Shown piece by piece: positions 4,945 to 24,499 of a DNA stretch of 64,000 bases; position 1 is the stretch's first letter; the number at the start of each line of letters is the position of its first letter. The notes beneath the pieces are model-generated. The model was not told the DNA's origin and did not search any database. It saw only the letters and a list, made by a program, of their open reading frames with translations. Both the position numbers and the translations under genes were made by a program. Source of the stretch: Ignavibacteria bacterium (GTDB taxonomy: Bacteria; Bacteroidota; Ignavibacteria; SZUA-365); NCBI GenBank assembly GCA_016720835.1, contig JADKJW010000002.1, forward strand, positions 199,036 to 263,035, read 5' to 3'.

Positions 4945-5883
4945 TCAGCGGCCGCCGGCGAGCTTCGACCTCGCCGCGGCGAGGACGGGCAGGACGTCGG
5001 GAGGACTCGTCGCGAGCCAGGAATCGAGCACGGGACGCGCGATCTCGGAGAACGCGAAGGACCACCGGATGCGCGGGCGCCGGATGGTCTCGCCGAACAC
5101 TCTGCGGATCTCCGGGTGCGTCTGGTCGCGCTGCGAACCGAGAAACACGCCGAATGCATGCTGGTCGCCGTACATGGCTGCTGCGCGGAGCGCGAAGGTG
5201 ATGCCCGCGTAGACGTTCGCGTCCCCGGCGGCTTCGAACGTGGGAGGCAGGAGCGCGAGCGCCATGGCGGTGAAGGACGCGTCGAGGGTGACGATACGCG
5301 CCGCGGCGCCGAGCGGAAAGAGCTTGCGCCACACCTTCTTCTCATGTGCATCGGCGAGCAGCGCGGCATACTCCTGCTCGAAGTGCGCGCACGTGTAGTC
5401 GAGAAAGGTGTACTGGATGAGGTTGCGGGCATCGACCCAATCCACGCTCGAATCGAGCATCGGCACGAGGGAACGCAGCTTCTGGGGCTGCTGATCGATG
5501 TACAGGTCGAGCACCATCGCCGCGATTTTCCGCAGGTGGATGACGCCGAATTGAAAACCGCGCGCGGCGCCGAACTCGTTCGCATGCGGGATCTGCACCA
5601 TGTGCAGCGGGGCCACATCCCAGAGCCAGGCGCAGAATTCGAAGCCGTTCGGCGGCAATCCGGCAAAGCCCGAACGCAGCGCGCGGGCGATGCGCTTGGT
5701 CAGGTCCGCAACCTGCACGTCCTTGCCGTTCGCGACGGGAGGCTGCTCGAGTTGCACGATGATGTCCTCGAGCGCGGACTCGAAATCTCCGGACACCACA
5801 TGCTGGCTGTTGCGGATGTTGCGCTCGAACACCGCGGCCGCCACTCTCTCGTCGATATGCGCGATCGTCAGTCGGTCTGTCAT
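4945..5883 (-). CDS. hypothetical protein (313 aa), possibly heme-oxygenase-like/iron-containing redox enzyme fold
   Basis: ATG at 5883 (MTDRLTIAHIDERV...). The track's M at 5907 is actually a TTG. Helical, protein-like composition. Family assignment is weak. Confidence 0.4.
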   Translation of the reverse strand: MTDRLTIAHIDERVAAAVFERNIRNSQHVVSGDFESALEDIIVQLEQPPVANGKDVQVADLTKRIARALRSGFAGLPPNGFEFCAWLWDVAPLHMVQIPHANEFGAARGFQFGVIHLRKIAAMVLDLYIDQQPQKLRSLVPMLDSSVDWVDARNLIQYTFLDYTCAHFEQEYAALLADAHEKKVWRKLFPLGAAARIVTLDASFTAMALALLPPTFEAAGDANVYAGITFALRAAAMYGDQHAFGVFLGSQRDQTHPEIRRVFGETIRRPRIRWSFAFSEIARPVLDSWLATSPPDVLPVLAAARSKLAGGR

Positions 5884-5965
5884 GATGGGGGTGTTGAATT
5901 CTCGCAATCAGCAATGTCGAGAAAGTTTCACTCGCGAAAAACATCGGAGCGGAGGCGCGGCCCGT

Positions 5966-6454
5966 TCACTCCAGGTACTGCTTCGGATCGAGCGCCTTCA
6001 CGGTCCACTTGGAGAGGAAGGCGAGCACTTTTTCGGGGCTGTGCGCCTTGCCCTCTTCCAGGAAGCCGCTGTCCTGCGTGTGGAGAAGCATCCCCTTCGC
6101 GTCGATGACGAGGAGCACGGGAAAACCGAAACGCTGCGGATTGCCGTAGCGCGCGAGCAGAGGGAGGTTCTTGTTCTCCGTGCTGTAATTGACGCGGACG
6201 AACACGTAGTTGTCCCGGATCATCGCTGCGATGGTGTCGTTGCCGCTGAACAGCTTCTCCAGCCTGATGCACCATGGACACCAGTTTCCGCCCACCTGCG
6301 CCAGGACCTGCTTGCCTTCCGCCGCGGCCCGGGCGATCGCCTGCTGCACCTCTTTCCCGGCGTCGGCGTCCGGATTGTAGATTTTCACCGCCTGCTTTTC
6401 CTGCGCGACCGCCATGGCGGAAAGCAGCAGGACTAGGAACACATATGGATTCAT
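5966..6454 (-). CDS. secreted thioredoxin-fold protein (thiol:disulfide oxidoreductase-like)
   Basis: N-terminal signal peptide (MNPYVFLVLLLSAMAVAQE). Contains the WCPWC redox motif (GGNWCPWCIRLEKLF). A GGAG sits 8 nt upstream of the ATG. Confidence 0.7.
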   Translation of the reverse strand: MNPYVFLVLLLSAMAVAQEKQAVKIYNPDADAGKEVQQAIARAAAEGKQVLAQVGGNWCPWCIRLEKLFSGNDTIAAMIRDNYVFVRVNYSTENKNLPLLARYGNPQRFGFPVLLVIDAKGMLLHTQDSGFLEEGKAHSPEKVLAFLSKWTVKALDPKQYLE

Positions 6455-6531
6455 CGTCCGATCTCCGTGGTGTTGGACTGCAATCTATCCCGCGCCGCTC
6501 TGGAAAGAAAACCCGGCGCAGGGGCGCCGGA

Positions 6532-7440
6532 TCAGAGCAGTTTCATCAGCAGCGGCACGGCGATCTCCGCGAGACCTTCCACCTTCCGGAGGGCATCCGC
6601 TTTCTCTTCGTTCGACAAGGCGGCGTCCGCGACGATTCCCATCAGCTCCGCGAACCGCTGTTTATCCGTCGCGGTCGGCGTGATGGCGAGGATCTCCTCG
6701 TCCGTCAAGCGCGTCAGGCCTGATACTTTCGCGGCGAAGGCATCGTCCGTCTGCTTTTTCGCCTTCTTCCTGATTTCATCCCATGTGCTGCTCACGGCCG
6801 CTCTCCTTTGCTGTCGATGGTGGATTTGATGGCGTCGTACAGGGAGGTGGCCTTGGCGGATGCCGCGCCCGCCTTTTTCAGGTAGGCGTCGAACGTCCTC
6901 TCGATCAGTTCCAGATCCACCGTGCCGCCGGAGACGGATTTCACGGCCGCGGTGACGGACGTCGTGGCTTCCTCCACGGAGACCGCGGACTGCAGCAGCC
7001 GCGTGATGCCCGTGTTGCCCTGCAGCAGCTGCGCGTAATGGTGATCGCTCCGCGTCAGCAGGAGAACCCTCGTGTTCTCCAGATCGGCATGCTTCTGGTC
7101 GCGCTCGACCATGACGTCGCGGAGCACGTCCTTCATCTGCAGCGGGGTGAGGGGTTTCGGACTGGCCGGCGGCTTTCAGCGCGGCCTGGATATTGGCAAG
7201 GTAGGCCGGGAGGTATTCATTTTCGATCCACTGGTCCACCTGCTGCTTCTTCGACGCGAAGTACGCGTTGAGGACGCCCGTATAGCTTCTCCGGCTCTCC
7301 GCGATGCCCTTGCCGACCTCCGCGCTCAGTTCGACGGATTCCTTCGGGATGCTCGCGCACGCGCCGGCGATCATCGTCAGCGCGACGAGGACGGCGCCGA
7401 TGGAGGCTCGGGTTCCGGCGGCGCGTGGATGGTGCTTCAT
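6532..7440 (-). pseudogene. lipoprotein gene disrupted by a +1 frameshift near 7140-7175 (poly-C run). A possible separate small GTGA-coupled ORF occupies 6532..6797.
   Basis: Frame A from the ATG at 7440 (MKHHPRAAG...LVALTMIAGACAS lipoprotein signal ...NIQAALKAAGQSETPHP) turns into Arg/Gly-rich junk. The protein-like continuation (LQMKDVLRDVMVERDQKHADLE...DSKGERP*) lies in frame +1 and ends at 6792. The frame-B stop TGA overlaps a GTG in frame A (ccGTGAgc), which opens a protein-like 87-aa ORF (..STWDEIRKKAKKQTDDAF...LLMKLL). The shift falls in ccccTCAcccc. Confidence 0.45.
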
Positions 7441-7588
7441 GAGGAACGCTCCTTTCAGACGGTGAGTGACCGCGCGACGTCCGGACTTCCCCGGCAAGCG
7501 TCGATGACGGGAGCGCCGCGCGCACGTTGTCCGATAGTAGCATGGGAAGCGGTGATTGTCAAGAGAAATCCGAACCTGCGCGACGGGA

Positions 7589-12224: not shown

Positions 12225-14219
12225 TCATTCGATGACTTCGACGAACACGTTCCTGTTGTACATTCTCCCTTCGGGGAGCGTATTCTGGAAGGTGTACTGC
12301 ATGTTGGTCTGACCGATCCCGATGGCCTGGACGTCGATGTTTTTGCTATCCTTGCCCAGCTGGTCGTCGATGATGCGCTTCGCTTCGTTCGCGCGTTCCT
12401 GCGACAGTTTCTGGTTGGCTTCCTCGTTGCCGATGATGTCGGTGTGTCCATGAACGATCACGGTGTTGCCGACATTCATGCCCGGAGCGATTTCCTTCCG
12501 GATCTTCGTCTCATACGTCGCGACCGCGTCCGCCTTGTTGTAGTCGAAGACCATGAGGTAGCGGGAGGCGTTCTTGACCTCTTTTTCCTTCCGCAGGTTG
12601 AAATTCTCCTTTTCGGTAATCTTTCTGCCATCGGGCATCGACACGACCGTGGTGGCGGTAAAGCTGCCCTGGTCCAGGCCGCGCATGATAGGCGATGCGT
12701 TGATGCGCTGATTCGATGTGGTGTAGGGTCCGTATTTTCTCACCTGATTCTCGCCCGCGATGGAAACCGTCCAGCTGCTGAACGGGGTCGATGTCCGGAC
12801 ATTGAACACCAGGTCGTTGTCGATGGAGGATTCGTCGCGGATGGTGTACTGCACCGGTTTGTACATGTCCTGGTTGCTGAACACGAAGACCACTCTGCGA
12901 TTCTCATCGTCGATCATGGATGTGAACTCGGGATTCGTCAGGGCGCTGCCGGACGGTTTCCGCGGAGGCTCCACAATGATGGTGATGCGGCTGGCCTTGA
13001 TGCCGTAATTGTCCACGAGGTAGTTCTTCACCTTCAGCGCGCATGCTTCGCCGTCCTTTTCGACGGGATCGCAGCCGCGCAGGGTGAGCTGCTCCTTCGG
13101 ATTCTTGCGCATCCGGTCGCCGTAGATGTTCAACACGTTGTAGTAATTCACCATCAGCTGGTCGACGTTCGTTTCCTGCACGGTCAGCTCGCCGGTTGTG
13201 TAGTTTGCGTTGTCCACTTCCTTGTACTTGCCGGCGTCGCCGTTCGACAGCTTGATGTACCGCGCGGGGATCTCCGCGTTGTCCTTCTCGTAGAACACGT
13301 ACGGGAGAATGGAGAAGTACCCCTTGATGTTCTTCGTGACCACTGTGTTGTCGCGGGGCATCACGATGTACACGCTCTTCTCCGCGGGTTTTTCGACCAC
13401 GGCGGCACGCGGGGCGGGCACGTAGGGTGCCTCTGTGATCTTTTCTTCCGGCTTTCTCGATTCCCAGGACAGCCTGATGCCGGCGCGGAACGTCTGCGTC
13501 GACCAGATATCCGTCGTGGAGTTCTGTGACCGCGTGATCACGGATTTCCGCTGCGCGGCGATGAAGGAGTAATCGAAGAACGGGCTGACGTAGAATGACG
13601 AATTCACGCTTCTCGACGCCTCGATGTCATACGCCACGCCGGCAGTCACGCCGAGGGAGGCAACCGGGCGATCCGGCACCTTCTGATCGGCGGCGGTCAC
13701 GTCGCCGGCATGATCGCGTTTGAAATCGAATGTTCCATGCATGTTCACGGCGATCAACGGACCCACAGTGAGGCTGAGATTGCGAATGAGATGCTGGTCG
13801 AAGCGGATGGCCGGCTCGATGGAGATGTAGCTCATGCGGGTGATGAATTTGCTTTTCGGCACCGTATATTCATCGGTGATCTCCGCATCGCGCATGTCCC
13901 ATGAAGCGCGGAACTGCACGCCCCACCAGCTGGAGGACAGGTATTCCACGAACGCGCCGCCGTAGCCCCCGAGGCCCTTGCCGTCAACGTTCTTGTCCGA
14001 TTCCGGGTTCGGGTTGTTAAAATTGTGAATACCCGGGTCGAAGATATACAGATCCTGGTACCCGAGTGAAGCCGAATTTGCATTCACGCCGAGATGAATG
14101 CCGTAGCGCCACGCCTGTGCCCGGAAGGTGTTGTCCTGCGCCTGGGCGTTGCCGGAGATGAGAAGGAGGGCACAGCCGAGCAGCATGCCCGCGGTGATAT
14201 GCTTCCAGTGATTCTTCAT
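12225..14219 (-). CDS. OmpA-family outer-membrane protein (664 aa): N-terminal beta-barrel-like region + C-terminal OmpA peptidoglycan-binding domain
   Basis: Real start at ATG 14219 (MKNHWKHITAGMLLGCALLLISGNAQAQ signal). The C-terminus VHGHTDIIGNEEANQKLSQERANEAKRII...NRNVFVEVIE is the OmpA_C motif. Off-frame junk upstream was trimmed. Confidence 0.7.
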   Translation of the reverse strand: MKNHWKHITAGMLLGCALLLISGNAQAQDNTFRAQAWRYGIHLGVNANSASLGYQDLYIFDPGIHNFNNPNPESDKNVDGKGLGGYGGAFVEYLSSSWWGVQFRASWDMRDAEITDEYTVPKSKFITRMSYISIEPAIRFDQHLIRNLSLTVGPLIAVNMHGTFDFKRDHAGDVTAADQKVPDRPVASLGVTAGVAYDIEASRSVNSSFYVSPFFDYSFIAAQRKSVITRSQNSTTDIWSTQTFRAGIRLSWESRKPEEKITEAPYVPAPRAAVVEKPAEKSVYIVMPRDNTVVTKNIKGYFSILPYVFYEKDNAEIPARYIKLSNGDAGKYKEVDNANYTTGELTVQETNVDQLMVNYYNVLNIYGDRMRKNPKEQLTLRGCDPVEKDGEACALKVKNYLVDNYGIKASRITIIVEPPRKPSGSALTNPEFTSMIDDENRRVVFVFSNQDMYKPVQYTIRDESSIDNDLVFNVRTSTPFSSWTVSIAGENQVRKYGPYTTSNQRINASPIMRGLDQGSFTATTVVSMPDGRKITEKENFNLRKEKEVKNASRYLMVFDYNKADAVATYETKIRKEIAPGMNVGNTVIVHGHTDIIGNEEANQKLSQERANEAKRIIDDQLGKDSKNIDVQAIGIGQTNMQYTFQNTLPEGRMYNRNVFVEVIE

Positions 14220-14344
14220 ACGAGATCCTCTGCTGAATTGTGAAGGTGTGACGTTGGGAGTACAGTGAAGCCGGGTGTTGTCCATGGTTCCTGTTTCTTT
14301 CAGGAGGTCGCGACGGATGCGTCGCCGTTCGTTGCGGTTCTCCA

Positions 14345-14812
14345 TCACCGCGTCAGTTCGTTGGACATGTGCAGTGTGAAGACGTTCGCGATGGATTTCT
14401 CCAGCGTGTCGATTTCGCGGATGGTCACGGTTCTGAATGATTCCCATGCGATATCGCTCCGCGCGGGATAGTCGTCCAGTTTCCGCTTCATTTCCTGATA
14501 GTGTTTTTCCACCGTCGCCAGTCTGGTGACCTGGCCGGCGTTGGAACGATCCTGTTCCTTCGCGATCCGTGCCCACGAGCCCGCGATGCGCGATTCCACG
14601 ATGCGCATGCGCTCTTTCATCGTGCGCTTGAAGGCCCGGAGGGTATCTGTTTCCAGACCGTTTCGACTCGCGGTGGACCAGGTGCCGGGATCCAGAATCT
14701 CGAATGCCGCGTCGTCGGATGCCGCGGATGGTTGCGCCGTGGTGAGCAGGCCGGTCAGCTGAGCGGCGAGAATGCCGGCGGCGAGAAGGAGTATGATGAC
14801 GAGGTTCTTCAT
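14345..14812 (-). CDS. hypothetical secreted protein (155 aa)
   Basis: ATG at 14812 (MKNLVIILLLAAGILAAQLTG signal peptide). Charged, coiled-coil-like remainder. No family recognised. Confidence 0.45.
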   Translation of the reverse strand: MKNLVIILLLAAGILAAQLTGLLTTAQPSAASDDAAFEILDPGTWSTASRNGLETDTLRAFKRTMKERMRIVESRIAGSWARIAKEQDRSNAGQVTRLATVEKHYQEMKRKLDDYPARSDIAWESFRTVTIREIDTLEKSIANVFTLHMSNELTR

Positions 14813-14947
14813 ATGACGCGAAATGGGCGGGTGGACCTGGTGCTGTGGTAGATTTTCGTTCCTGCGTGGATTGTCTCTGCGCATCGCGTGCACGGCGTGT
14901 CGGGGAACACAATCACTATACAAAGGTATGCTCGACACATGCGGTTT

Positions 14948-14988
14948 GCATTACACAACTCCATGAATACATTACAGCATTCACACAT
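14948..14988 (+). promoter_or_regulatory. conserved 41-bp element, copy 1 (two ~13-bp direct repeats TTACA(C/G)(A/C)A(C/T)TC spaced 21 bp apart, followed by CACAT)
   Basis: gcATTACAcAACTCcatgaatacATTACAgCATTCaCACAT. It is 35/41 identical to copy 2 and about 30/41 identical to copy 3. It lies in a gene-free 530-bp intergenic region, 129 bp upstream of the minus-strand gene start at 14812. Confidence 0.5.
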
Positions 14989-15179
14989 CATGGTACTGTT
15001 TTCCGGGAATGCGGGTCATCTGCCGGGTCACGCCTTCTCGCGTATTGTGCGCGCGGATCCTTGCGAGCTCCTTTTCCGTCGCCTATACAACTTTTTACGA
15101 TCGCGCATCGTGCCTCCCTCCAGCGTCTTCTCCCCGCGAGGAGAGGTTGCGGAAACGCGTTGCCCGGCACAACGATGCA

Positions 15180-15211
15180 CAGGAGATGCGCATTGCTGCG
15201 CGCATCTCCTG
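15180..15211 (+). other. perfect 12-bp stem / 8-nt loop hairpin in a gene-free intergenic region
   Basis: CAGGAGATGCGC-attgctgc-GCGCATCTCCTG. No T-run on either strand, so it is not a canonical intrinsic terminator. It sits ~190 bp downstream of motif copy 1. Confidence 0.4.
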
Positions 15212-15343
15212 CGAATCACTCCGTCCGGCGAGGTGGTATTACGAATGCCTGGTCATCATCCGCGGTCTCATCTCCGTGCCTGTCTCGTGCTGTCTGACGT
15301 CGGTGCGGTCCGGCGAGGCGCTCACTCCGCGACGGCGTGTTCT

Positions 15344-15682
15344 CTATTCGTATCCGCTCTTGATGACGGTGAGAATCATTTTGAACCGTTCGTTCGCCTT
15401 GACGATATTCGAGGTATGCGCGGGGATGATGATCGACTGTCCCGTATCGAGCATGTGCGACAGCCCGTCGATGACGATTTCCGCCTTCCCGTCGATGATT
15501 TGCGCGAAAGCATCGTACGGGATGATATTCTCCGTGAGCGCTTCGCCGTCATCGAAGGACATGACGTTGACATGTCCGGTGGTTTTATTGATGATGGTCT
15601 TGCTCACCACCGAATGCGGTTCATATTCAATAATTTCAACCATGATGACCGCTCTTGATTTTTCTAATTCCGTGTTTTTCAT
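15344..15682 (-). CDS. cupin-domain protein (112 aa)
   Basis: ATG at 15682 (MKNTELEKSRAVIMVEIIEYEPHSVV..GHVNVMSFDDGE..GKAEIVIDG..). Small beta-barrel cupin-like pattern. TAG stop at 15344. Confidence 0.55.
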   Translation of the reverse strand: MKNTELEKSRAVIMVEIIEYEPHSVVSKTIINKTTGHVNVMSFDDGEALTENIIPYDAFAQIIDGKAEIVIDGLSHMLDTGQSIIIPAHTSNIVKANERFKMILTVIKSGYE

Positions 15683-15747
15683 CACTGTATCCGTCCTGTG
15701 GTATCCATGGGCCTGTGGGCGAGACACGAAGCACTCGTTTCTCCTCC

Positions 15748-16203
15748 CTATTGATTATCGGACGACACCATGTTTGAGAGAGCGGTGCCCAGGTCATCCA
15801 TGTCGCGGCTGAATTCCGACTTGAAGGATCTCCATGCATCTTGTCCATCTTCCGAATATTCGTTCAGTTTCACCTTGAGCTCCTTGTTTTTCTGCTCCAC
15901 CACGGCGAGGTTCCGCTCGTAACGCGCCCGGTTCTGCTTCTTCTCGCGCGAGATCTTCACTTTGTACTCCGCGATCGCCTTCTCATAGTCGGCGATCTTC
16001 GCCTCGGCGTCCGTACGGAACTGCCGGATGGAATCCTGAATGGCCAGATGCAGCTCCGCAGCCGCTTCACCCGCGGTCGCGTTCGCTTCCCGCACGTTGT
16101 CCCGGGCTTCGTCGATTTTTTCACTGTCGCCCCGGCAACCGGCGGACAGCATGCCCATGACGCAGAGCGTACAGGCGAGGAGGATGAGAGAGGCTGTTTT
16201 CAT
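15748..16203 (-). CDS. lipoprotein with coiled-coil region (151 aa)
   Basis: ATG at 16203. MKTASLILLACTLCVMGMLSAGC lipoprotein signal. The remainder is K/E-rich and helical. Confidence 0.5.
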   Translation of the reverse strand: MKTASLILLACTLCVMGMLSAGCRGDSEKIDEARDNVREANATAGEAAAELHLAIQDSIRQFRTDAEAKIADYEKAIAEYKVKISREKKQNRARYERNLAVVEQKNKELKVKLNEYSEDGQDAWRSFKSEFSRDMDDLGTALSNMVSSDNQ

Positions 16204-16326
16204 GGTCGGTACGCCTGTGTTTCTGATGATACGGTGAGGAAGAGGCATATGATGATCTGTACGCCGTCGACAGTCCGTCATGATACACGATCACGATACA
16301 AACATATGTTTCGCCGATGCTGAAAG

Positions 16327-16367
16327 TGTTACACAACTCTGTATTTCCGTTACACCATTCTCACATT
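16327..16367 (+). promoter_or_regulatory. conserved 41-bp element, copy 3
   Basis: gtGTTACAcAACTCtgtatttccGTTACAcCATTCtCACAT. It is 115 bp upstream of the minus-strand lipoprotein gene start (16203), in a 430-bp gene-free region. Confidence 0.45.
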
Positions 16368-16603
16368 TTCGCGGAGTGCCGACGCTCAGCGTGCTGCGCA
16401 CGCTCTTGTGTGTTCGGTGCCCCAGCACCGGTCATGGCGCTCCCCTGCATCTCGATGGCGCACCGGCTCCACGATCGTCCATCCACTGCAGGATGCGCGA
16501 TGGCAGAGAACACCTCCCCTGCGTGACACAGGTGGGACGTGATCACATCATCATGTTGACTGGAAGGAACGACGGAAAGATGCGAAGACGACCGCGACGA
16601 TCT

Positions 16604-16640
16604 GTTACACGATTCCCCGATTCTTTTGCATGATTCACAC
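16604..16640 (+). promoter_or_regulatory. partial fourth copy of the element, overlapping the stop codon of the AraC-family gene
   Basis: gTTACAcgATTCcccgattcttttgcatgATTCACAC. The two half-repeats are 26 bp apart rather than 21. Confidence 0.3.
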
Positions 16641-17195
16641 CTTCTCGAGCACCGTCCTACGCTTGTGCTTCAGATGCTTGAAAAACGTCGGCGTCAATCC
16701 GGTGATCTTCTTGAATTGATTCGAGAGATGCGCGACGCTGCTGTAATTCAGGAGGTAGGAGATCTGGGTCAGCGTCAGCTCATCGTAGAGAAGAAGCTCC
16801 TTCACCCGCTCGATCTTGTGCGCGATGATGAAATGTTCGATGGTCACCCCGGTCGCCTCGGAGAACAGGTTGGCGAGGTAGGTGTAATCGTGGTTCATTT
16901 TTTCGGAGATGTAGACGGAATTCTTCGTCCGCGGCAGCTCATCCGTGTAGTGGACCATTTCCACGATGACGTTCTTGATTTTCTCGATGAGCATGGCCTT
17001 GCGATCGTCCATCAATTCCAGTCCGGATTTCAGGAGCGCCAGCCTCAGTGCGTCCCGATTCCCTTCCGATATCTGTCCGCGGACATCCACCTCGCCCAGG
17101 TCGATGACGCCGTAGGTCAGTCCGAGCTTGTCCAGCTCGGCCTTGACCACCATTTTGCAACGGATACTGACCATGTATTTGATGTAGATTTTCAT
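16635..17195 (-). CDS. AraC/XylS-family transcriptional regulator (187 aa) with a short N-terminal domain
   Basis: ATG at 17195 (MKIYIKYMVSIRCKMVV...). The C-terminal HTH_18 signature is TIEHFIIAHKIERVKELLLYDELTLTQISYLLNYSSVAHLSNQFKKITGLTPTFF. The upstream part of the track ORF is off-frame junk. Confidence 0.7.
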   Translation of the reverse strand: MKIYIKYMVSIRCKMVVKAELDKLGLTYGVIDLGEVDVRGQISEGNRDALRLALLKSGLELMDDRKAMLIEKIKNVIVEMVHYTDELPRTKNSVYISEKMNHDYTYLANLFSEATGVTIEHFIIAHKIERVKELLLYDELTLTQISYLLNYSSVAHLSNQFKKITGLTPTFFKHLKHKRRTVLEKV

Positions 17196-17745
17196 GGCTG
17201 TCTGTACGTCTGGTTCTTTATCGGGCGGTATGCAGATCGATGTCTGCGATCTCCGTCCCTCGGCGCGATCAACGCTCTGGCTGCTTCTGCGTCGCATCCC
17301 CGATGCGACAGGGTCGGCAGGAAACTGAACAGCGCCATTCCTCGGGCCGGCACGATTCCTTGGGGGGGGTCGTTGCGGGATGCGCTCATTGCAGCGCGGT
17401 GTTCCGTATCCCAATGGAACCTGTGCAGCATGCGGTGCATGATAGGGGTGAACATGAGCGCAGCGGTGACGATGAACACGAGCCCCGCGAACAGCGCGTA
17501 TGTCCCGGCGAACAGCTTCCCCGTCGCAGTCACCGGCGCATTGACCGGCCCCATCCCGCCCGGGAGCATGGCGGAGGAGCGGCGGTTGGATTCGTGTCTC
17601 ATACATGGGGAGGCGCCAATAGTATATAATCTTTCATATCACGCGCGAATCGGTGTCGCGAACACCACTTGGTGCACCCGGAGGACGCGGCACGGGAGAG
17701 TATCATGATATACCCGATAATGGTCTTGACTCTTCCCGCACCCCG

Positions 17746-19161
17746 ATGTACTATATAGAATTCACTTCGCAAGGCCCGCCCGTGATACATGCATCGTTCC
17801 GTGTCCAGACGCCGTGGTTGCGCAAGCTGCTGCACGCGGCGAGTATCGCGTTGGGAACCGTGCTCCTGCTCGTGCTGGTCATTCTCGTATTTTTCTTCGA
17901 TACGCTTCTGAACGGGTACGGCAAGGACCGGATGCTGCTCGCGTTCGCGGAGGCGTATCCTTCGGCATCGCTCCAACTGGGGGATATGTCGTATCATTTC
18001 TGGAGCAATCGTCTGGACATCGATTCCATCCGCCTCGTGACGGCCGATTCCGGAATGACCTGCAGCGTCTCGACGCTCTCCCTGCACGGCATCGCGTGGA
18101 TGCGCATTCTGTGGCCGCGGGACACCGTCTCCCTGCCGTTCGAAAATGCCGTGCTGGATGCGCGCGGGATGGCGGTCCGCTTTCGTCCGTCCATGAATTC
18201 CCTTCGCATCGACGCGTTGCATCTCTCCGCGCCGGATTCGGTCATGACGCTGGATTCCGTGCACTTCCTTCCCGGGTACGATGACGAGGACCTCTTCGCG
18301 CTGAGCCGCTACCGGCAGACGCGCTTCCGGTTCTCCGTCCCCCTCCTGCGCATCTCCGCGCTGGACTGCGCGGCGCTTCTCCGCGGCGACGGATACCGCG
18401 CGCGGCATGTGGCGATCGAGAATCTGGCCGCCGATATTCTGGTCAACATGGACAAGCCGTACGACGCGAAATCCACCCCGCCGCAGATGCCGAACGAGGC
18501 CTTCGCCGCGATACGCGACAGCGTGCGCATCGACAGCGTGACCGTCAGCGGCGGCAGTCTGAACTACTGCGAACGCATCGCCGTTCGGGGTGCGCCAGGC
18601 GTCATCACCTTCGACCGCATCGCCGTAAAGACGGGGCGGATCTCCAATACCGCCGCCGTGCCCGATACCACGATCATCCATGCCGAGGGACGGTTCATGG
18701 GCTCCGCAAACATGACGATGGAAATGGCACTGCCGCTCAGCTCCACGACCTTCTCGCTTCGCTACTCCGGCTATCTCGGTCACATGCAGTTGACGGCGCT
18801 CAACGACTTTCTCGTCCCCTGCGAGCATCGGCGTGTGACGGAAGGGGTCATGCATGCGGCGCGGTATTCGGTGCATGTGGTTTCCGGAAAATCGCGCGGG
18901 ACGTTGCGCGCGGAATACACCAGACTTCGGATTTCCGTCCTGGATGCGCACACGGGAAGTTCCAAGGGCATCTTTAATCGGATCGCGTCCTTCATCGGCA
19001 AGGTCTTCGTCATCAGAGGGAGCAACATGCCCGGCGAGCGCGGATCGCTGAAGCTCGGGACCATCCGCCGCACCCGCAAGGCCGACGATTACTTTCTGCA
19101 GAACCTGTGGTTCGCGCTCCGCGGCGGCGTGGCCGACGTTGTGGGATTCACCGAGAAGTAG
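17746..19161 (+). CDS. membrane-anchored hypothetical protein (471 aa), possibly an AsmA-like/DUF748-like periplasmic protein
   Basis: ATG at 17746 (MYYIEFTSQGPPV...LRKLLHAASIALGTVLLLVLVILVFFF: N-terminal TM helix) followed by a large soluble domain. The antisense ORF 17599..18951 is junk. Family uncertain. Confidence 0.45.
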   Translation: MYYIEFTSQGPPVIHASFRVQTPWLRKLLHAASIALGTVLLLVLVILVFFFDTLLNGYGKDRMLLAFAEAYPSASLQLGDMSYHFWSNRLDIDSIRLVTADSGMTCSVSTLSLHGIAWMRILWPRDTVSLPFENAVLDARGMAVRFRPSMNSLRIDALHLSAPDSVMTLDSVHFLPGYDDEDLFALSRYRQTRFRFSVPLLRISALDCAALLRGDGYRARHVAIENLAADILVNMDKPYDAKSTPPQMPNEAFAAIRDSVRIDSVTVSGGSLNYCERIAVRGAPGVITFDRIAVKTGRISNTAAVPDTTIIHAEGRFMGSANMTMEMALPLSSTTFSLRYSGYLGHMQLTALNDFLVPCEHRRVTEGVMHAARYSVHVVSGKSRGTLRAEYTRLRISVLDAHTGSSKGIFNRIASFIGKVFVIRGSNMPGERGSLKLGTIRRTRKADDYFLQNLWFALRGGVADVVGFTEK

Positions 19162-19163
19162 CC

Positions 19164-19982
19164 TCAGAACGTCACCGTAATCGAGAGCGGATACAGGGAT
19201 GTCACGCCGATCGGCGAGGGTTCCGCCTCGTGCTGATCGACGACCCAGGTGGCGATGACGTAGCCCATGGCCGCGCCGGCAAAATCATCGGAAACCCAAT
19301 GCTTGTCCTGATAGACGCGGGACACAAACGTCAACGCCGCAGGTACATACGCGAGAATCTTCAACCACAGCGCGGACGCATTTCTCGAAAGGACCGTGGA
19401 AAACACGAAGGCGGCGACATTGTGCCCGCCGGGGAGTGATTGATAGTCTGATTTCGAGAGTGCGCCGAGCGGCGAGGTAAAGGAGTGGAACGCATGCGGA
19501 CCCTCGTTGACATAGGGTCTCGACCGGCCGATGGACCATTTCAGCAGGTACGTGATAATGCCGGCGTAGATCGATGCCTGTCCGATTTCATACGCGATTT
19601 TCCTGCTGCCCATGTCGTCGGTGAGAAGAGAATGAATGGCGTAGCCGCCGAAGAGGACGAAGGGCATGTACAGATCGCCCCACATTCGTCCAATTTCCAT
19701 GGGAACGCTCTTCGCATATCGCTGATCGCTCAACGCCCAGTCGCGCGCAGGCTGATCCGCGGTCTCCATGAGCGCATATGTTCCAGCGCCGATGGCACCC
19801 AGAGTGAGCCAGTCACGCGCCTTCCATGTGGTCGGCTGCTTGATGAAGAGCCAGGTCTCATCCCCGAATTGCGAGAAAGTATAGCGGAGCTTCGGATCAC
19901 CGACTGGTGCAGGTCCATTTTGCGCGAGAAGCAGCTGTCCGCAGAGCACGGTCAGGAGAAGAAACAGGATGCCATTTTTCAT
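19164..19982 (-). CDS. PAP2-superfamily phosphatase (272 aa), secreted/membrane
   Basis: Signal peptide MKNGILFLLLTVLCGQLLLAQ. The three PAP2 motifs are KWSIGRSRPY (KX6RP), LPGGHNV (PSGH-like) and SRVYQDKHWVSD (SRX5HX3D). Confidence 0.7.
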   Translation of the reverse strand: MKNGILFLLLTVLCGQLLLAQNGPAPVGDPKLRYTFSQFGDETWLFIKQPTTWKARDWLTLGAIGAGTYALMETADQPARDWALSDQRYAKSVPMEIGRMWGDLYMPFVLFGGYAIHSLLTDDMGSRKIAYEIGQASIYAGIITYLLKWSIGRSRPYVNEGPHAFHSFTSPLGALSKSDYQSLPGGHNVAAFVFSTVLSRNASALWLKILAYVPAALTFVSRVYQDKHWVSDDFAGAAMGYVIATWVVDQHEAEPSPIGVTSLYPLSITVTF

Positions 19983-20034
19983 GATAGTGCCCGATGTCGT
20001 GAGTGGTGGACGAAGGTTGCCCGTCGGGCTCGCC

Positions 20035-21678
20035 TCACCGTTTCTTGAATTTAAACTCTTCGAAGAACAACTGGAAAAAGAGTTTCTGTTCCGTGCGTAC
20101 CGAATGCACAGGCGCGAAGTCGCGCGGATACCGTTCGCTGTAATAGATGATATGCTCGAAGCCGATGCTGAGAATGCTGAAGAGCGGGACCACGATGCGC
20201 GGTTTCACGAGCGCCACGTAACTGTTCCCCGGAAGTCCGACATAGGTGTGGAACCACCAGACGTATCCGACCATGGACAGCTTGAGGAAGCCAAAGTCGT
20301 AGGCGCTTTCCATTTTCGCTTCCGCGCCGCCTCCGAAGTTGTAATCGCGCATCTGCGTCGTATCGGGACCGTAGCGCCCGCTCAATCCGGCGAGTGGCAC
20401 GATGCCGACGTGAAAATCCGCGTACAGGCTCGCGCGCTGGCTCGTCGGCAGCTTCCCGATCAGTCCCGGTCCGAACGCGATCGCGCCGAATTCGAAGGTG
20501 TTGTTGTCGAAGAAATTCATGCGCTGAAATATTCCGAGCAGCGCATCCGCATCTCCCACCCGGATGTTGCGTCCGTACAGCACGGCGTCGCCGGTGACTT
20601 TGGTGATGATTTTTCTTCCGTCTCCGAAGTTGAGCGCGGTCTGCACCTGGAAGTAATCGAAGGGCTTTCGCTCGCGTTTCTCCAGCGGATTCCCGTAGTC
20701 GAGATCCATGCCGAGGCTCACGGCCTGTGTGCCCTTCTCGATGCGGGTTCCCTCGTTGACCTGATGATAGCCCGCCGTCAGGGTGACGTTCAAGGGTTCC
20801 TTCTGGTACACTTCTTCCGTCGTCAGCCGCGTCAGGCTGCCGTTCATCAATCTGCTGAAGAAGCGTGTCGGCGTCATGATGGCGACGGCGGCCTCGCGTG
20901 CAAAGCGGTCCCATCCCGTAGTCTGATCGTCGAGGATATTCGATCCGAGCCGGTAGAAGATCTCGCCGAGGAAGCTGCCGTTGATCGGCGTGTTGATGAA
21001 ATCATTGTAGGAAGGAAGCGTGTTTTCGAAGAAGTACTCCCATTCCAGGCTTCCCAGAAACGCGAAGGGCACGGATTCGAAATAGGTGTATCCGTTCGCG
21101 CGGGCGGCATTGAAGAACATCCCCCCCGAGAACGGGTGGAAGAAGTAATTCATGCCGAAGCGGTCCGTGTCCCACTCCCAGCCGGTCTGGATATTGTGTT
21201 TCCATGAATTGAATCCGATTCTGGCGAAGTCCGCGTTCAACACGTAGCGATCGATTGCCCATGTTGTCACATTCGCAAGTGTCAGGCGCCCCACCACCAT
21301 CCAGGGAGAGGATTTCGTGACGTACAGCGGATTGTCGTTGAGCAGGTCGCCATACTTGTTGAATTTCAGGGAGTCGTCGGCCTGCGGCGCCTGTCCCTCG
21401 ATCAAACGGGGATCCCATGGACTCTGATCGAAGATCAGGGCCGGTGTTTCCGTCGAGGTGAATTCACTGCTGTCGATGCTCCCGGGGTTGGATGCGGTCG
21501 TCGCGCCGGGCATCGCGGATCCTTCCGCCGTCGCGCTGCTGTCGAGCCCGGCCACCGTCTGTGCCTCCAGCGTGGTGGTGAGCAGGAACACCAGGATCAC
21601 GAGACCGGGCACTCCGCAGACGGTCCCGCGGATGGAATGTGCGCGTGCCCGGTTCATATTCGTCGCCATCGTCTTCAT
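20035..21678 (-). CDS. secreted outer-membrane-type hypothetical protein (547 aa), possibly DUF3943-like
   Basis: Start chosen at ATG 21678 (MKTMATNMNRARAHSIRGTVCGVPGLVILVFLLTTTLEAQ), with GAGGATGG 8 nt upstream. Aromatic-rich segment WDTDRFGMNYFFHPFSGGMFFNAARANGYTYFE. The DUF3943 assignment is from memory only. Confidence 0.45.
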   Translation of the reverse strand: MKTMATNMNRARAHSIRGTVCGVPGLVILVFLLTTTLEAQTVAGLDSSATAEGSAMPGATTASNPGSIDSSEFTSTETPALIFDQSPWDPRLIEGQAPQADDSLKFNKYGDLLNDNPLYVTKSSPWMVVGRLTLANVTTWAIDRYVLNADFARIGFNSWKHNIQTGWEWDTDRFGMNYFFHPFSGGMFFNAARANGYTYFESVPFAFLGSLEWEYFFENTLPSYNDFINTPINGSFLGEIFYRLGSNILDDQTTGWDRFAREAAVAIMTPTRFFSRLMNGSLTRLTTEEVYQKEPLNVTLTAGYHQVNEGTRIEKGTQAVSLGMDLDYGNPLEKRERKPFDYFQVQTALNFGDGRKIITKVTGDAVLYGRNIRVGDADALLGIFQRMNFFDNNTFEFGAIAFGPGLIGKLPTSQRASLYADFHVGIVPLAGLSGRYGPDTTQMRDYNFGGGAEAKMESAYDFGFLKLSMVGYVWWFHTYVGLPGNSYVALVKPRIVVPLFSILSIGFEHIIYYSERYPRDFAPVHSVRTEQKLFFQLFFEEFKFKKR

Positions 21679-21695
21679 GCGTGCCATCCTCTGTA

Positions 21696-21917
21696 TTAGC
21701 GTGTATCCTCGGTGTTCCGGGCGGTCGCTTCCCAACGGACGCACTGGCTGAACTTGTGCATCGTGATGCCCGCCAGCACGGTTTCGCGCGTTCCCAATTC
21801 GTACCATGGCCGTGCCGTGCTGATCTGCACCTTCCGCATGCGCCTCGACACGCGCTCCTGTTCCATGCTCGTGTAGATGCAGAAAATGTCTTGTTCTTCG
21901 TTGATTTTCATCGGGAC
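21696..21917 (-). CDS. possible small ORF (73 aa) immediately upstream of the 20035..21678 gene
   Basis: MKINEEQDIFCIYTSMEQERVSRRMRKVQISTARPWYELGTRETVLAGITMHKFSQ... has protein-like (not Arg-rich) composition. There is an 18-nt gap to the next gene. No clear RBS. Motif copy 2 lies 58-98 bp upstream. Confidence 0.25.
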   Translation of the reverse strand, partial: VPMKINEEQDIFCIYTSMEQERVSRRMRKVQISTARPWYELGTRETVLAGITMHKFSQCVRWEATARNTEDTR

Positions 21918-21974
21918 GGCCATTGAGGGAATACCGGAATTGCATAATAAATGTGCCTCCGCACGCCCCAAAAA

Positions 21975-22015
21975 GCATTACAGAACTCCGGGAATTCGTT
22001 ACAGCATTCACACAT
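21975..22015 (+). promoter_or_regulatory. conserved 41-bp element, copy 2
   Basis: gcATTACAgAACTCcgggaattcGTTACAgCATTCaCACAT. It is 202 bp upstream of the plus-strand GT4 gene ATG (22217), in a 540-bp region with no confident gene. Confidence 0.5.
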
Positions 22016-22216
22016 TGAAACCATGGTGCAGGAATTTTTCCCGCGAAACGATATCGGTACAACCCAGCATGAAATGCTGTACATTACATGCACGGTTGCC
22101 GTTTGATATTCGCGGAAGGATCGTCATGCCGGGACCTCCCGTGTGGGGACGTTCCCTCGCCGCGCATCGTTCGCACCGCGCGCCATTTCCCTGCCATCTG
22201 CCGGAGGACTGTTGTG

Positions 22217-24499
22217 ATGGATTCCACGCTGCCGGAACGCATCGCCTTCCTCGGCGGATACGTGCCACGACTCTGCGGTATCGCGACGTTCACACACGAC
22301 GTGTGCGAGGCCGTCGCCACCGCGGCCCCCGGGGCTCTCTGCTTCGCCGGCGCCATGAACGACCGCCTCGACGCGTACGAGTATCCGCCGCGTGTCCGCT
22401 TCGAACTGGATCAGAAGGATCTCGATTCCTACAGGCGCGCCGCGGACTTTCTGAACTTCAGCAACGCGGACGTGCTCTGCGTGCAGCACGAGTTCGGCAT
22501 TTACGGCGGTCCCGCCGGCAGCCATCTCCTCGCCCTGCTCAAGGAAGTGCGCATGCCCGTGGTGACGACGCTGCACACCATTCTGCGCACACCGGACCCG
22601 ATCCAGCGCTCGGTGATGGATGAGGTCCTCCGGCGCAGCGACCGCGTGATCGTGATGGCGCGCAAGGGCGCCGACATCCTTCGCGAGACGTACGGCGTCG
22701 CGGACAGCAAGGTGGACATCATTCCGCACGGCATTCCGGACATGCCGTTCATCGAGTCGCGCTACTACAAGCAGCAGTTCGGCGTCGAGGGACGCATGGT
22801 CCTCCTCACCTTCGGGCTGCTCGGCCCGGGGAAAGGCATCGAGTACGTCATCGAAGCCCTCCCGGATATCGTACAACGGCATCCGAATATCGTCTACCTA
22901 GTCCTGGGCGCCACCCATCCGCATCTCGTCGCGCAGGAGGGCGAGACCTACCGTCTCGGGCTCGAGCGCCTGGCGGAGGACCGCGGCGTCAAGGATCACG
23001 TCATCTTCTACAACCGCTTCGTGTCGATCGACGACCTGAAGGAATTCATCGGCGCGACGGACATCTACCTCACCCCGTACCTGAATGAGGCCCAGATCAC
23101 GTCGGGAACCCTCGCGTACGTGTTCGGCGCGGGCAAAGCCGTGGTGTCCACACCCTACTGGCACGCGCAGGAGCTGCTCGCCGGGGACCGGGGCATCCTG
23201 GTGCCGTTCCGGAACTCCGCCGCCATCGCGGAGGGGGTCTGCGCATACCTGGACGACCCCGCCCGCATGCAGGAAACGCGCGTGAAGGCGCACGATCTCG
23301 GTCGCGACATGATCTGGCCCGCCGTGGCGCAGCGCTTCCTCGAGTCCTTCCAGCGCGCGCGCACGGAGCGCAGGGCGCAGCCCCGCTCGGCGTTCGCCGG
23401 GTGGACGCTCGCGAGCCGTCCCACGGATCTGCCCCCGCTGCGGCTCGATCACATCATCCGCATGAGCGACGGCACCGGCATGCTGCAGCACGCCACGTTC
23501 AACGTCCCGAACTTCGATGAAGGGTACTGCACCGACGACAACGCGCGGGCGTTCATCCTGTGCATCATGCTCGAGGAACTCGGCGGCCGCCCGCCGACGG
23601 AAAATCTCGATCACCTCACCACCAGCTATCTCGCCTTCCTGTCCGCCGCCCTGAATCGCGAGACCGGCCGCTTCCGCAACTTCATGAGCCACGCGCGGCA
23701 GTGGCTGGAAGATTCGGGCAGCGAAGACAGCCATGCGCGCGCCCTCTGGGCAGCCGGGACCGGCGCGGGACGCTCGCACAACCAGGGGCACCGGCGCCTG
23801 TGCGCGCAACTTTTCGATCGCGGTCTGTCCGCCGTGGAATCGTTCTCTTCTCCGCGCGCATGGGCCTTCACGCTGCTGGGCGTCCATGAATATCTGCACA
23901 GTTTCCCGGGGCATCCGGTCGTCGAGGCCGCGCGCATCTCGCTCACCGACAGACTCCTGGAACTCTGGAACGGCTGCGCGACGGAGCACTGGCCGTGGTT
24001 CGAATCCAGCGCCACCTACGACAATGCCCGCATCTGCCAGGCCCTGATCCTCAGCGGTCAGCGAATGCCCAATGCCGACGCCGTCGAGATCGGTCTGAAA
24101 TCCCTCGGGTGGCTGGTCTCCGTGCAGAAGACGCGCGAAGGGCATTTCAGGCCCATCGGGAGCAATGGGTTTTACGTGCGGGACGGCGCGCATGCGGACT
24201 TCGATCAGCAGCCAGTGGAAGCGCAGGCGATGGTGGCCGCGTGCCTCGAAGCCTTTCGCGCCACGCAGGACGACTTCTGGATGCGCGAAGCCAAGCGGGC
24301 GTTCGAGTGGTTCCTCGGACGCAACGATCTCGGCTGGCCGCTCTACGACAGCAGCAACGGCGGGTGCGGGGACGGCTTGCACCACGATCGCGTCAACGAA
24401 AATCAGGGCGCGGAATCGACCCTCGCCTTCCACCTCGCGCTGGCGGAAATGAACTTCGCGAAGCACATCTTCGCGCCGATCACGAGTGTGGTCCCATGA
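22217..24499 (+). CDS. family-4 (GT-B) glycosyltransferase with ~370-aa C-terminal alpha-helical extension (760 aa)
   Basis: ATG at 22217 with GGAGGA RBS (MDSTLPERIAFLGGYVPRLCGIATFTHDV...). The GT4 core is HEFGIYGG...VLLTFGLLGPGKGIEY...GATDIYLTPY...AYVFGAGKAVVSTP. The extension (..DEGYCTDDNARAFILCIM..WPWFESSATYDNARICQALIL..) looks like a six-hairpin-type glycosidase-like domain (tentative). The antisense ORF 22898..24466 is junk. Confidence 0.7.
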   Translation: MDSTLPERIAFLGGYVPRLCGIATFTHDVCEAVATAAPGALCFAGAMNDRLDAYEYPPRVRFELDQKDLDSYRRAADFLNFSNADVLCVQHEFGIYGGPAGSHLLALLKEVRMPVVTTLHTILRTPDPIQRSVMDEVLRRSDRVIVMARKGADILRETYGVADSKVDIIPHGIPDMPFIESRYYKQQFGVEGRMVLLTFGLLGPGKGIEYVIEALPDIVQRHPNIVYLVLGATHPHLVAQEGETYRLGLERLAEDRGVKDHVIFYNRFVSIDDLKEFIGATDIYLTPYLNEAQITSGTLAYVFGAGKAVVSTPYWHAQELLAGDRGILVPFRNSAAIAEGVCAYLDDPARMQETRVKAHDLGRDMIWPAVAQRFLESFQRARTERRAQPRSAFAGWTLASRPTDLPPLRLDHIIRMSDGTGMLQHATFNVPNFDEGYCTDDNARAFILCIMLEELGGRPPTENLDHLTTSYLAFLSAALNRETGRFRNFMSHARQWLEDSGSEDSHARALWAAGTGAGRSHNQGHRRLCAQLFDRGLSAVESFSSPRAWAFTLLGVHEYLHSFPGHPVVEAARISLTDRLLELWNGCATEHWPWFESSATYDNARICQALILSGQRMPNADAVEIGLKSLGWLVSVQKTREGHFRPIGSNGFYVRDGAHADFDQQPVEAQAMVAACLEAFRATQDDFWMREAKRAFEWFLGRNDLGWPLYDSSNGGCGDGLHHDRVNENQGAESTLAFHLALAEMNFAKHIFAPITSVVP

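Follow-up and report, generated by a model that had tools for sequence, protein, structure and literature searches.

A direct-repeat promoter element conserved across three FCB-group phyla and its candidate AraC-family activator in an Ignavibacteria genome

Introduction

A 64-kb stretch of DNA from an Ignavibacteria bacterium (assembly GCA_016720835.1, contig JADKJW010000002.1, positions 199,036 to 263,035; hereafter the window, in whose positions all coordinates are given) carries an element of about 41 bp that is present three times, with a degenerate fourth copy, in long intergenic regions around a gene for an AraC-family protein. The question raised by this locus is what such an element does: whether it is the binding site of a regulator, part of a promoter, the mark of small RNA (sRNA) genes or the remnant of a repeat. 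An earlier sequence-only reading had described it as two direct repeats forming a protein operator. In this work, the structure of the element, its occurrence in other genomes and its linkage to the AraC-family gene are described. With a probability of roughly 0.72, we read the element as the upstream half of a minus-strand promoter that depends on an activator; it would be bound by a tandem AraC-type dimer and would control a stress-type regulon.

The coordination of stress and stationary-phase responses is poorly understood in Bacteroidota and their relatives, which are major members of soil, water, wastewater and gut communities. To our knowledge, no counterpart of RpoS, SigB or EcfG has been defined in the Fibrobacterota-Chlorobiota-Bacteroidota (FCB) superphylum, and we know of no description of the known general-stress sigma factors in Bacteroidota and their relatives. 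No description of the motif or of its regulator was found in the full-text literature, a coverage that leaves subscription journals outside.

Results and discussion

Structure of the element

The consensus of the sequence-only reading, searched in the window with up to three mismatches, returned exactly three sites (14950-14988, 16328-16366 and 21977-22015, referred to as copies 1 to 3), in agreement with the positions given by that reading, and none in 100 dinucleotide-preserving shuffles of the window. Copies 1 and 3 are identical at 36 of 41 positions, one more than the 35 counted earlier. Since the downstream genes faced by the copies are all encoded on the minus strand, the element should be read on that strand, where it takes the form AATGTGTGAAT-n-(A/C)TGTAAY-N10-A-n-TT-n-TGTAAY. 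It comprises two TGTAAY half-sites 21 bp apart, each with the core A-R-T-n-R-TGTAAY, and the distal half-site is extended to AATGTGTGAAT-n-ATGTAAY. The arrangement TGTAAY-N15-TGTAAY is present in all three strong copies, and the same spacing was observed across 140 instances from other genomes (foreign instances), which supports the interpretation of the repeats as a protein operator. With one mismatch allowed, this arrangement has four matches in the window against 0.1 expected; besides the three strong copies, these include a site unrelated to them (38055-38081, with one mismatch), which was not flagged by the weight matrix described next.

A position weight matrix (PWM) built from 138 foreign motif instances scored the strong copies at 45.7-47.6 bits. 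The degenerate fourth copy (copy 4) was confirmed, with 31.9 bits and a preserved 21-bp period. Besides these four copies, no position in the 64 kb scored above 8 bits, and all four sites are located inside 7 kb surrounding one AraC-family gene (Table 1).

Comparison with related loci (numbered with the prefix L) revealed the pattern of change within each copy. Copy 1 is identical in the close relative L123, where the spacer to the -7 box described below differs at 3 positions. The half-sites of copy 2 are conserved in L123 and L124, and its spacers are variable. Copy 3 shows one substitution in relatives L127-L129, located in the inter-repeat spacer, and copy 4 reaches 35 bits in L123 and L124, with substitutions confined to non-consensus positions. 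Additionally, an isolated TGTAAT hexamer is found on the minus strand at 22083-22088, about 70 bp upstream of copy 3 and outside any full site, and it is invariant in L127-L129.

Core promoter and fixed register

Alignment of the four regions on the minus strand revealed an extra common block downstream of the element, which reads TAccTTTGTAT after copy 1 and TAtgTTTGTAT after copy 2. The 11-mer TAnnTTTGTAT occurs twice in the window against 0.03 expected, and these two occurrences are the ones that follow copies 1 and 2. Judged by its sequence, the block is the -7 box (TAnnTTTG) of the FCB-group sigma-A promoter. The earlier statement that the element matches no FCB-type promoter was therefore wrong on the minus strand, where TAnnTTTG stands 22 nt after the element. 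In copies 3 and 4 the corresponding boxes read CAcaTTTA and CAtcTTTC, compared with the exact TAnnTTTG of copies 1 and 2; the -7-like box of copy 3 is invariant in relatives of that locus.

The distance from the end of the element to the -7 box is fixed at 22 nt, counted from TGTAAY to the A of the box. Among the foreign instances, A was observed at position 60 in 123 of 140 and TT at positions 63-64 in 138 of 140, followed by T and G. The arrangement A-nn-TTT occupies positions 60-65 in 101 of 139 instances and is shifted by -1 (one base closer) in 17, and each remaining register accounts for about one instance. TAnnTTTG alone has 5 matches in the window, which is not above chance, so its significance derives from the fixed register after the element and from nothing else.

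The -33 TTTG, about 19-21 bp upstream of the -7 box, was not conserved in the 140 foreign instances, in which positions 38-41 read A-c-T-T. Its place is occupied by the proximal TGTAAY half-site, and its absence agrees with dependence on an activator. The sigma-A box of Flavobacterium psychrophilum covers -12 to -5 (PMC9723704). With the -7 box placed at -12 to -5, the element would extend from about -73 to -34 and the proximal half-site from about -44 to -34.

A subset of the promoters also carries a 16-bp palindrome, GTGAA-N6-TTCAC, which begins at motif position 71, the predicted +1. GTGA at this position was found in 18-20 of 138 promoters, most of them with the full palindrome, and both arms are perfect in about 13 of 20 as judged by eye (the loci include L005, L025, L030, L057, L061, L064, L074, L078, L081, L085, L092 and L115). 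This palindrome has a half-site similar to the distal TGTGAAT box and could serve as an additional operator, perhaps one for a repressor. At the same register, copies 1 and 2 of the window have just GTGAT (14912-14916 and 16290-16294).

Conservation across genomes

A collection with one genome per species was scanned with the degenerate pattern GTGNGAATNNTGYAAY-N10-ANTTNTRTAAY. At least 120 stretches were matched, against about 1-6 expected by chance (an arithmetic estimate). According to their titles, the 120 matches listed comprise 116 from Bacteroidota, 1 from Chlorobiales and 1 from Ignavibacteriae; the other two are a metagenome chromosome (L036) and a short contig labelled Syntrophales (L084, JBAZOY010000146.1, 3.7 kb). 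No other listed match bears a label from outside the FCB group; the contig encodes an Ice_binding-like protein of the sort common in the Bacteroidota loci, and its label probably reflects a binning error.

Conservation also extends to positions that the pattern left free, such as A at position -1 (129 of 140 foreign instances), T at position 4 (126 of 140) and A at position 10 (118 of 140). Orientation relative to genes is strongly biased: in 91 of 104 instances, the start of an open reading frame (ORF) of 50 aa or more lies 20-200 nt downstream, compared with 24 of 104 on the opposite side (p = 8e-22), with a median of 67 nt from the element to the ATG of the ORF. The sequence-only reading had named absence of the motif from related genomes as an outcome that would speak against a regulatory role; the element was instead found conserved in three FCB-group phyla and tied to orthologues of the AraC protein. 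The missing -33 TTTG, the fixed register and the orientation together point to an activator-dependent promoter architecture and not to a mobile repeat or an RNA gene, and we are highly confident that the element is a conserved promoter element.

The candidate regulator

The AraC-family protein of the window shares 75-80% identity with proteins of Saprospirales, Chitinophagaceae, Phaeodactylibacter and Emticicia, and all 8000 candidates that were scored in its homologue search reached E <= 1e-5. No NCBIfam equivalog was matched by this protein. Its AlphaFold2 model (mean predicted local distance difference test score, pLDDT, 87) contains a beta-alpha-beta-beta-alpha-beta N-domain (residues 1-62), a linker helix and a seven-helix AraC DNA-binding domain. 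In Foldseek, the DNA-binding domain matches MarA, AdpA, SoxS and AraC, and the N-domain weakly matches HMA-fold metallochaperones. The protein also has a conserved single cysteine (R12-C13-K14). The predicted helices 104-115 and 154-165, taken as the recognition helices, consist of residues largely invariant across taxa, and in these taxa the DNA motif is nearly invariant as well.

Several lines of evidence link this protein to the element. An orthologue (tblastn E < 1e-20) was detected in 25 of 123 sequences, namely the 120 listed motif loci, L001, L002 and the window. When the ORFs of the 120 listed loci were clustered, the 22 commonest families included a single DNA-binding one, AraC (22 loci), and no LytTR, OmpR, Crp or sigma family was found among the neighbour families present in at least 3 loci, each family being judged from one example sequence and only some being confirmed with Pfam. 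The gene neighbourhood thus gives no support to the LytTR or OmpR/PhoB binder considered by the sequence-only reading. In 10 of the motif-seeded loci (L003-L122), the motif overlaps the AraC stop codon, starting two bases before the end of the last codon, and at several foreign sites it is located about 90 nt upstream of an AraC paralogue. In Emticicia sp. C21, the AraC orthologue is immediately followed by three motif copies, and its stop codon is overlapped by the first of them. Maribellus maritimus 5E3 and Ancylomarina salipaludis SHSM-M15 are further cultured carriers. Among the matches listed, the motif has the same taxonomic range as the AraC subfamily.

A reciprocal test was performed with 80 metagenome loci (L132-L211, 334 kb) seeded with the AraC protein and not with the motif. 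In 58 of them (72%), one or more sites scoring 25 bits or higher were found, 89 in total, and no site reached this score in five shuffles per locus. Among the 89 sites, 27 overlap the AraC stop codon, 11 occupy a promoter position upstream of an AraC gene and 10 are located within 400 nt downstream. Together with the orthologue linkage, this result supports the earlier choice of the adjacent AraC-family gene as the best candidate binder, and we judge it rather likely that this protein binds the element and activates transcription.

The window shows the same overlap of gene and operator. The AraC stop codon TGA (16635-16637) coincides with motif positions 4-6 of copy 4, and the last two codons (AAT/AAG GTG) coincide with motif positions -2 to 3 (window 16635-16642, minus strand). 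With the stop codon and the last codons inside the operator, the conserved C-terminus ...ENV* and the DNA motif constrain each other. On the other side of the gene, a 136-aa ORF with a hydrophobic segment (17192-17602, minus strand) overlaps the AraC start codon by 4 nt; its GC content at third codon positions (GC3) is 0.74 and it has no Pfam match. About 250 nt separate the end of the upstream gene from the AraC gene in L123, and the 3' part of this ORF may therefore not be real.

Proposed mechanism and alternative explanations

We propose that every copy forms the upstream half of a minus-strand promoter that requires an activator. The 186-aa AraC protein encoded nearby would bind as two molecules in tandem, one per half-site, each contributing two helix-turn-helix (HTH) units, and the HMA-like N-domain or the linker helix would hold them together. 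The promoter-proximal molecule would then recruit RNA polymerase by the class II mode known from AraC, XylS, RhaS, MarA and SoxS. Three units of the window would be controlled in this way, comprising a secreted coiled-coil protein and an OmpA protein (copy 1), an sll1863 lipoprotein and a cupin (copy 2), and a small protein, DUF3943 and PAP2 (copy 3), and the weak fourth site would be the one fused to the regulator's own stop codon. The testable features of an AraC/XylS class II site, namely direct repeats, a position beside the core promoter and a linked AraC protein with two HTH units, were all found.

Several points weigh against this proposal. For all copies, we infer the binding, the activation, the transcript starts and the inducing signal, and the predicted starts are extrapolated from one flavobacterial study. 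The -7 boxes of copies 3 and 4 are imperfect. The PWM was trained on pattern-selected sites, and the taxonomic purity of the matches listed is overstated if the collection is ordered by taxon. Among the AraC-seeded loci, 22 of 80 have no site of at least 25 bits, many of these being short contigs, and no motif is present in 6 kb on each side of the orthologue in the Saprospirales locus L001, so the pairing of AraC gene and motif is not universal. PAS hybrid histidine kinases, found in 32 of the 120 listed loci, are the commonest neighbour family, ahead of AraC, and a response regulator could therefore be involved. Finally, the label "stress regulon" is drawn from family names and from analogy with other phyla.

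The abundance of these kinases is the starting point for a different explanation, in which the element is the operator of another tandem-binding regulator, either of the LytTR or OmpR type fed by the hybrid kinases or Crp-like, and the AraC gene is only a target or a neighbour. A 21-bp direct-repeat period upstream of the -35 region is typical of LytTR regulators too, the neighbouring kinases combine PAS, HisKA, HATPase and receiver domains, and the AraC paralogue is itself a target at several loci. We nevertheless consider this explanation unlikely, given the absence of LytTR, OmpR and Crp genes from the recurrent neighbour families described above, the 27 sites placed over the AraC stop codon, the presence of the motif in 72% of the AraC-seeded loci, the taxonomic range shared by motif and AraC subfamily, and the agreement of largely invariant predicted recognition helices with a near-invariant DNA motif. 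Far less probable is the explanation of the whole 70-bp block as the promoter of an alternative sigma factor, for example of the extracytoplasmic function (ECF) type, with TGTAAC as its -35 element. GTAAC- or GAAC-like -35 boxes are common in ECF promoters and the usual -33 TTTG is absent here, but a sigma factor has no need of the second TGTAAY 21 bp upstream, the 22-nt gap between TGTAAY and the block exceeds the ECF spacer (16-17 nt), and genes for sigma or anti-sigma factors are not enriched around the motif in the 120 listed loci. Furthermore, no CGT block is conserved between positions 38 and 59 of the foreign instances, and the block that is conserved is of the sigma-A type A-nn-TTTG, unlike a CGT-type -10 such as SM6 (PMC9723704).

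Equally slim chances are given to explanations in which the copies mark sRNA genes, are dispersed repeats or mobile remnants, or reflect a functionless local gene duplication. The host intergenic regions are indeed long, copy 4 has no downstream ORF and is followed by a segment (16368-16520) well conserved in close relatives, and genes C and E behind copies 1 and 2 are paralogous (Table 1), so that these two copies could share one duplication. For an sRNA gene, however, there is no Rfam match, no significant fold and no common downstream sequence in the ORF-less cases. The copies resemble each other in the element and the -7 box but not in the flanks, which does not fit the dispersed repeat or insertion sequence (IS) remnant that the sequence-only reading had also considered. 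The motif is conserved across phyla before unrelated genes with fixed orientation and register, and the orientation tied to the downstream gene (91 versus 24 of 104) argues against miniature inverted-repeat transposable elements or IS elements. As for duplication, the proteins of genes C and E are 29% identical compared with about 85% for their upstream elements, and the gene fronted by copy 3 is unrelated. Since conservation is far stronger in the element than in the genes, we rejected paralogous duplication as the sole cause; the element is evidently kept by a constraint of its own and not as a passive leftover of duplication.

Comparison with known systems

In its architecture, the proposed AraC-type operator is closest to the sites of AraC at araI1-I2 (pBAD), XylS at Pm and RhaS/RhaR, which likewise consist of direct-repeat half-sites about 21 bp apart, each occupied by one monomer with two HTH units. 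In class II systems of the AraC/XylS type, the proximal site also adjoins the -35 region or overlaps it, and the core promoter has little strength when the activator is missing. The operators of AraC, XylS and RhaS span about -70 to -35, and the element would span about -73 to -34. The differences are equally clear. The core promoter here is of the FCB sigma-A type with the -7 box TAnnTTTG in place of -10/-35 elements, the regulator is a 186-aa protein with an HMA-like ferredoxin-fold N-domain in place of the cupin domain for sugar binding and dimerisation, the targets are stress and envelope genes in place of a catabolic operon, and the operator is often fused to the stop codon of the regulator. 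The element thus appears to work like a class II AraC/XylS operator grafted onto an FCB-type sigma-A promoter, and it lacks the defining features of an ECF promoter, a LytTR operator, a structured RNA and a mobile repeat.

MarA, SoxS and Rob share a similar small AraC-type DNA-binding fold (Foldseek probability 1.0) and likewise govern a dispersed stress regulon through a degenerate asymmetric marbox beside the core promoter. MarA and SoxS each occupy one 20-bp box as monomers, whereas two tandem boxes are the rule here and the regulator has an extra N-terminal domain. The LytTR operators of AgrA, ComE and AlgR likewise consist of direct repeats that recur about every 21 bp and reach the -35 region from upstream, but their half-site sequence is different, and an AraC gene, not a LytTR gene, is enriched near the motif in the 120 listed loci.

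Compared with the Bacteroidetes sigma-A promoter (-33 TTTG/-7 TAnnTTTG), the -7 box is the same in sequence and has a fixed position (PMC9723704), and the -33 TTTG is absent, being replaced by the proximal TGTAAY half-site. In gene content, the set of genes behind the motif overlaps with the regulons of SigB in Bacillus, RpoS in E. coli and EcfG/PhyR in Alphaproteobacteria, sharing CsbD, YtxH, Dps/ferritin and DUF892 (YciE/F) as well as Usp, OsmY- or OmpA-like lipoproteins and aldehyde dehydrogenase. Those regulons are set by an alternative sigma factor, whereas here the housekeeping -7 box is retained and specificity would come from the upstream activator site.

Predicted regulon

In the listed loci, the genes located directly after the motif most often encode CsbD-like proteins (13 cases), OmpA lipoproteins with glycine zippers (10) and Ice_binding-like secreted proteins (9), and the AraC paralogue itself occupies this position in 5 cases. 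Other genes found after the motif encode DUF5670 and other tiny membrane proteins, sll1863-like lipoproteins, YtxH, bacterioferritin, DUF892 and a cold-shock protein (CSD), and further examples include Usp, YceI, DJ-1/PfpI, Band_7, an M48 peptidase, MlaE, BrkB/YihY and aldehyde dehydrogenase. Several families of this list are RpoS- or EcfG-dependent in other phyla. In addition to these, csbD, dps and ytxH are core genes of the Bacillus SigB regulon (PMC7824861). The occurrence of the same promoter type before stress-type and envelope genes across Bacteroidota, Ignavibacteriota and Chlorobiota suggests that the regulon is probably a conserved stress regulon; that it represents a general stress response is a tentative reading by analogy, to which we give at best an even chance.

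A conserved unit was also observed, composed of the motif, a 181-aa AraC paralogue and a PAS hybrid kinase of up to 1038 aa (truncated in several loci). It is present in at least 7 loci (L103, L116, L033, L018, L038, L044 and L020). The kinase carries PAS domains and AELxxANKELxFQNxEKxKRA repeats, and the 989-aa kinase of L033 has HisKA, HATPase and receiver domains. No module of AraC paralogue and PAS kinase was found in the window. The position of the paralogue and the hybrid kinase behind the motif suggests positive feedback and sensory input in some lineages.

A bolder proposal, on which we would bet somewhat less than even, is that the element and its HMA-like AraC activator form a master switch for general stress, or for dormancy or envelope protection, in Bacteroidota, Ignavibacteriota and Chlorobiota. 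If so, this switch would be a functional counterpart of RpoS, SigB and EcfG built on an activator site and the housekeeping sigma factor instead of an alternative sigma factor, with positive feedback through the paralogue and input from the PAS hybrid kinase in some lineages. The analysis provides a phylum-spanning promoter signature, a named candidate regulator and a predicted regulon, the last of which contains numerous functionally uncharacterised proteins (DUF5670, DUF3943, DUF6600, DUF6799 and small membrane proteins). In thousands of metagenome-assembled genomes, the motif can help to annotate stress genes and promoters that depend on an activator.

Genes facing the copies in the window

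Table 1. Operator copies, predicted core-promoter boxes and associated genes in the window.
Feature	Position	Strand	Sequence or product	Remarks
Copy 1 operator	14950..14988	-	distal half-site GAATGCTGTAAT; proximal half-site GAGTTGTGTAAT	position 1 at 14986; exact pattern match; 47.6 bits
-7 box of copy 1	14921..14928	-	TACCTTTG	predicted transcript start near 14916
Gene C	14345..14812	-	155-aa secreted coiled-coil protein	predicted target of copy 1
OmpA-family gene	12225..14228	-	outer-membrane protein; Pfam OmpA and OMP_b-brl_2	after gene C; exact start not fixed
Copy 2 operator	16328..16366	-		position 1 at 16364; exact pattern match; 45.7 bits
-7 box of copy 2	16299..16306	-	TATGTTTG	predicted transcript start near 16294
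Gene E	15748..16203	-	151-aa lipoprotein, sll1863 family of stress response proteins	predicted target of copy 2
Small cupin gene	15344..15682	-	weak Cupin_2 match	after gene E
Copy 3 operator	21977..22015	-		position 1 at 22013; exact pattern match; 47.3 bits
-7-like box of copy 3	21948..21955	-	CACATTTA	correct register; predicted transcript start near 21943
Small ORF	21696..21923	-	71 aa from ATG 21911 or 75 aa from 21923	first gene after copy 3
DUF3943 gene	20035..21678	-	Pfam DUF3943	starts 17 nt after small ORF
PAP2 phosphatase gene	19164..19982	-	Pfam PAP2	after DUF3943 gene
Copy 4 degenerate operator	16604..16642	-		position 1 at 16640; 31.9 bits; 21-bp period kept
Weak -7-like box of copy 4	16575..16582	-	CATCTTTC	correct register; predicted transcript start near 16570
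Candidate regulator gene	16635..17195	-	186-aa AraC-family protein; Pfam HTH_18 and HTH_AraC	

Genes C and E are distant paralogues, with 29% identity over 91 aa (E = 5e-12). Gene C has a weak sll1863-family match and a GC3 of 0.75, and gene E matches NCBIfam NF052504 with 45.5 bits (cut-off 35). The sll1863 family is located directly after the motif at two other foreign sites (L008 and L100) and is present in 13 of the 120 listed loci. The OmpA-family gene probably shares a transcription unit with gene C, and OmpA-type genes occur in 25 of the listed loci. The small cupin gene probably belongs to the unit of gene E; its family is present in 10 of the listed loci and also follows the motif in L125. 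Directly after the motif of L083 (4870-4960), a fragment resembles by eye the C-terminus of the small cupin (KANERFKMVSTIIKSV...) and looks like a decayed copy of the cupin gene that follows the motif in other loci.

The region 21679-22216, which had been taken as gene-free, holds the 71-75 aa ORF on the minus strand. Its GC3 is 0.78-0.83 in its frame, it is called as a 75-aa gene in related assemblies, and 6 of its 7 substitutions relative to close relatives are synonymous; from the codon bias and the synonymous substitutions, we judge this ORF to be real. No family match was obtained in Pfam or NCBIfam, and the homologue search returned one near-identical cluster only, so by its sequence the ORF appears to be lineage-specific. 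The DUF3943 gene is probably in the same unit, and the PAP2 gene possibly so. A parallel order by position was observed in L125, where a small gene (DUF5670) is followed by a gene for a 555-aa protein with no recorded Pfam match and by PAP2, and the PAP2 neighbourhood is the same in L125 and L126.

Copy 3 had been assigned to the plus-strand operon that begins with a GT4 glycosyltransferase gene (22217-24499). This assignment was rejected: copy 3 is oriented away from that gene, toward the minus-strand small ORF, DUF3943 and PAP2, and its orientation together with the previously missed ORF also led us to reject a bidirectional use. Homologues of the GT4 protein are encoded in 5 of the 120 listed loci (L083 at 5333-7576, L028, L037, L054 and L051), with identities of 33-41% over 450-745 aa in four loci and 31% over a 150-aa truncated fragment in L054. 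In 4 of these 5 loci, the gene is on the same strand as the motif and downstream of it (at about 500 nt in L083). The GT4 family therefore belongs to the gene neighbourhood of the motif in other genomes, though copy 3 points away from it.

The long spacers

The sequence-only reading had suggested that the long spacers may encode sRNAs, for which no support was obtained. No Rfam match was found in the spacers in either gathering or E-value mode, the fold of the 205 nt after copy 4 (16368-16572) is no better than that of shuffles (z = -0.71), and searches of the three spacers by blastx and blastn against the collected loci gave no match. In the foreign instances, an ORF of at least 50 aa is present within 220 nt downstream in 133 of 138, and the five ORF-less instances have no common sequence. 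Measured against close relatives, the 355 bp of spacer upstream of copy 1 have changed faster than the element itself.

Two structures were noted in the spacers. After the cupin gene, this 355-bp spacer contains a perfect hairpin of 10-12 bp (15180-15211; GGAGATGCGC, 8-nt loop, GCGCATCTCC). Its stem is conserved and its loop is different in L123, and it may represent the end of the cupin transcript, without a T-run. Between copies 4 and 2, the stretch 16368-16570 (minus strand), which the weak -7-like box of copy 4 would transcribe, shows about 5% differences in close relatives versus about 15% in the other spacers. In this stretch, no convincing ORF, significant fold, Rfam match or similarity to the collected loci was found. 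Its part 16368-16520 is unusually well conserved, with a 1-nt indel, and the stretch ends in a palindromic hairpin at 16388-16404.

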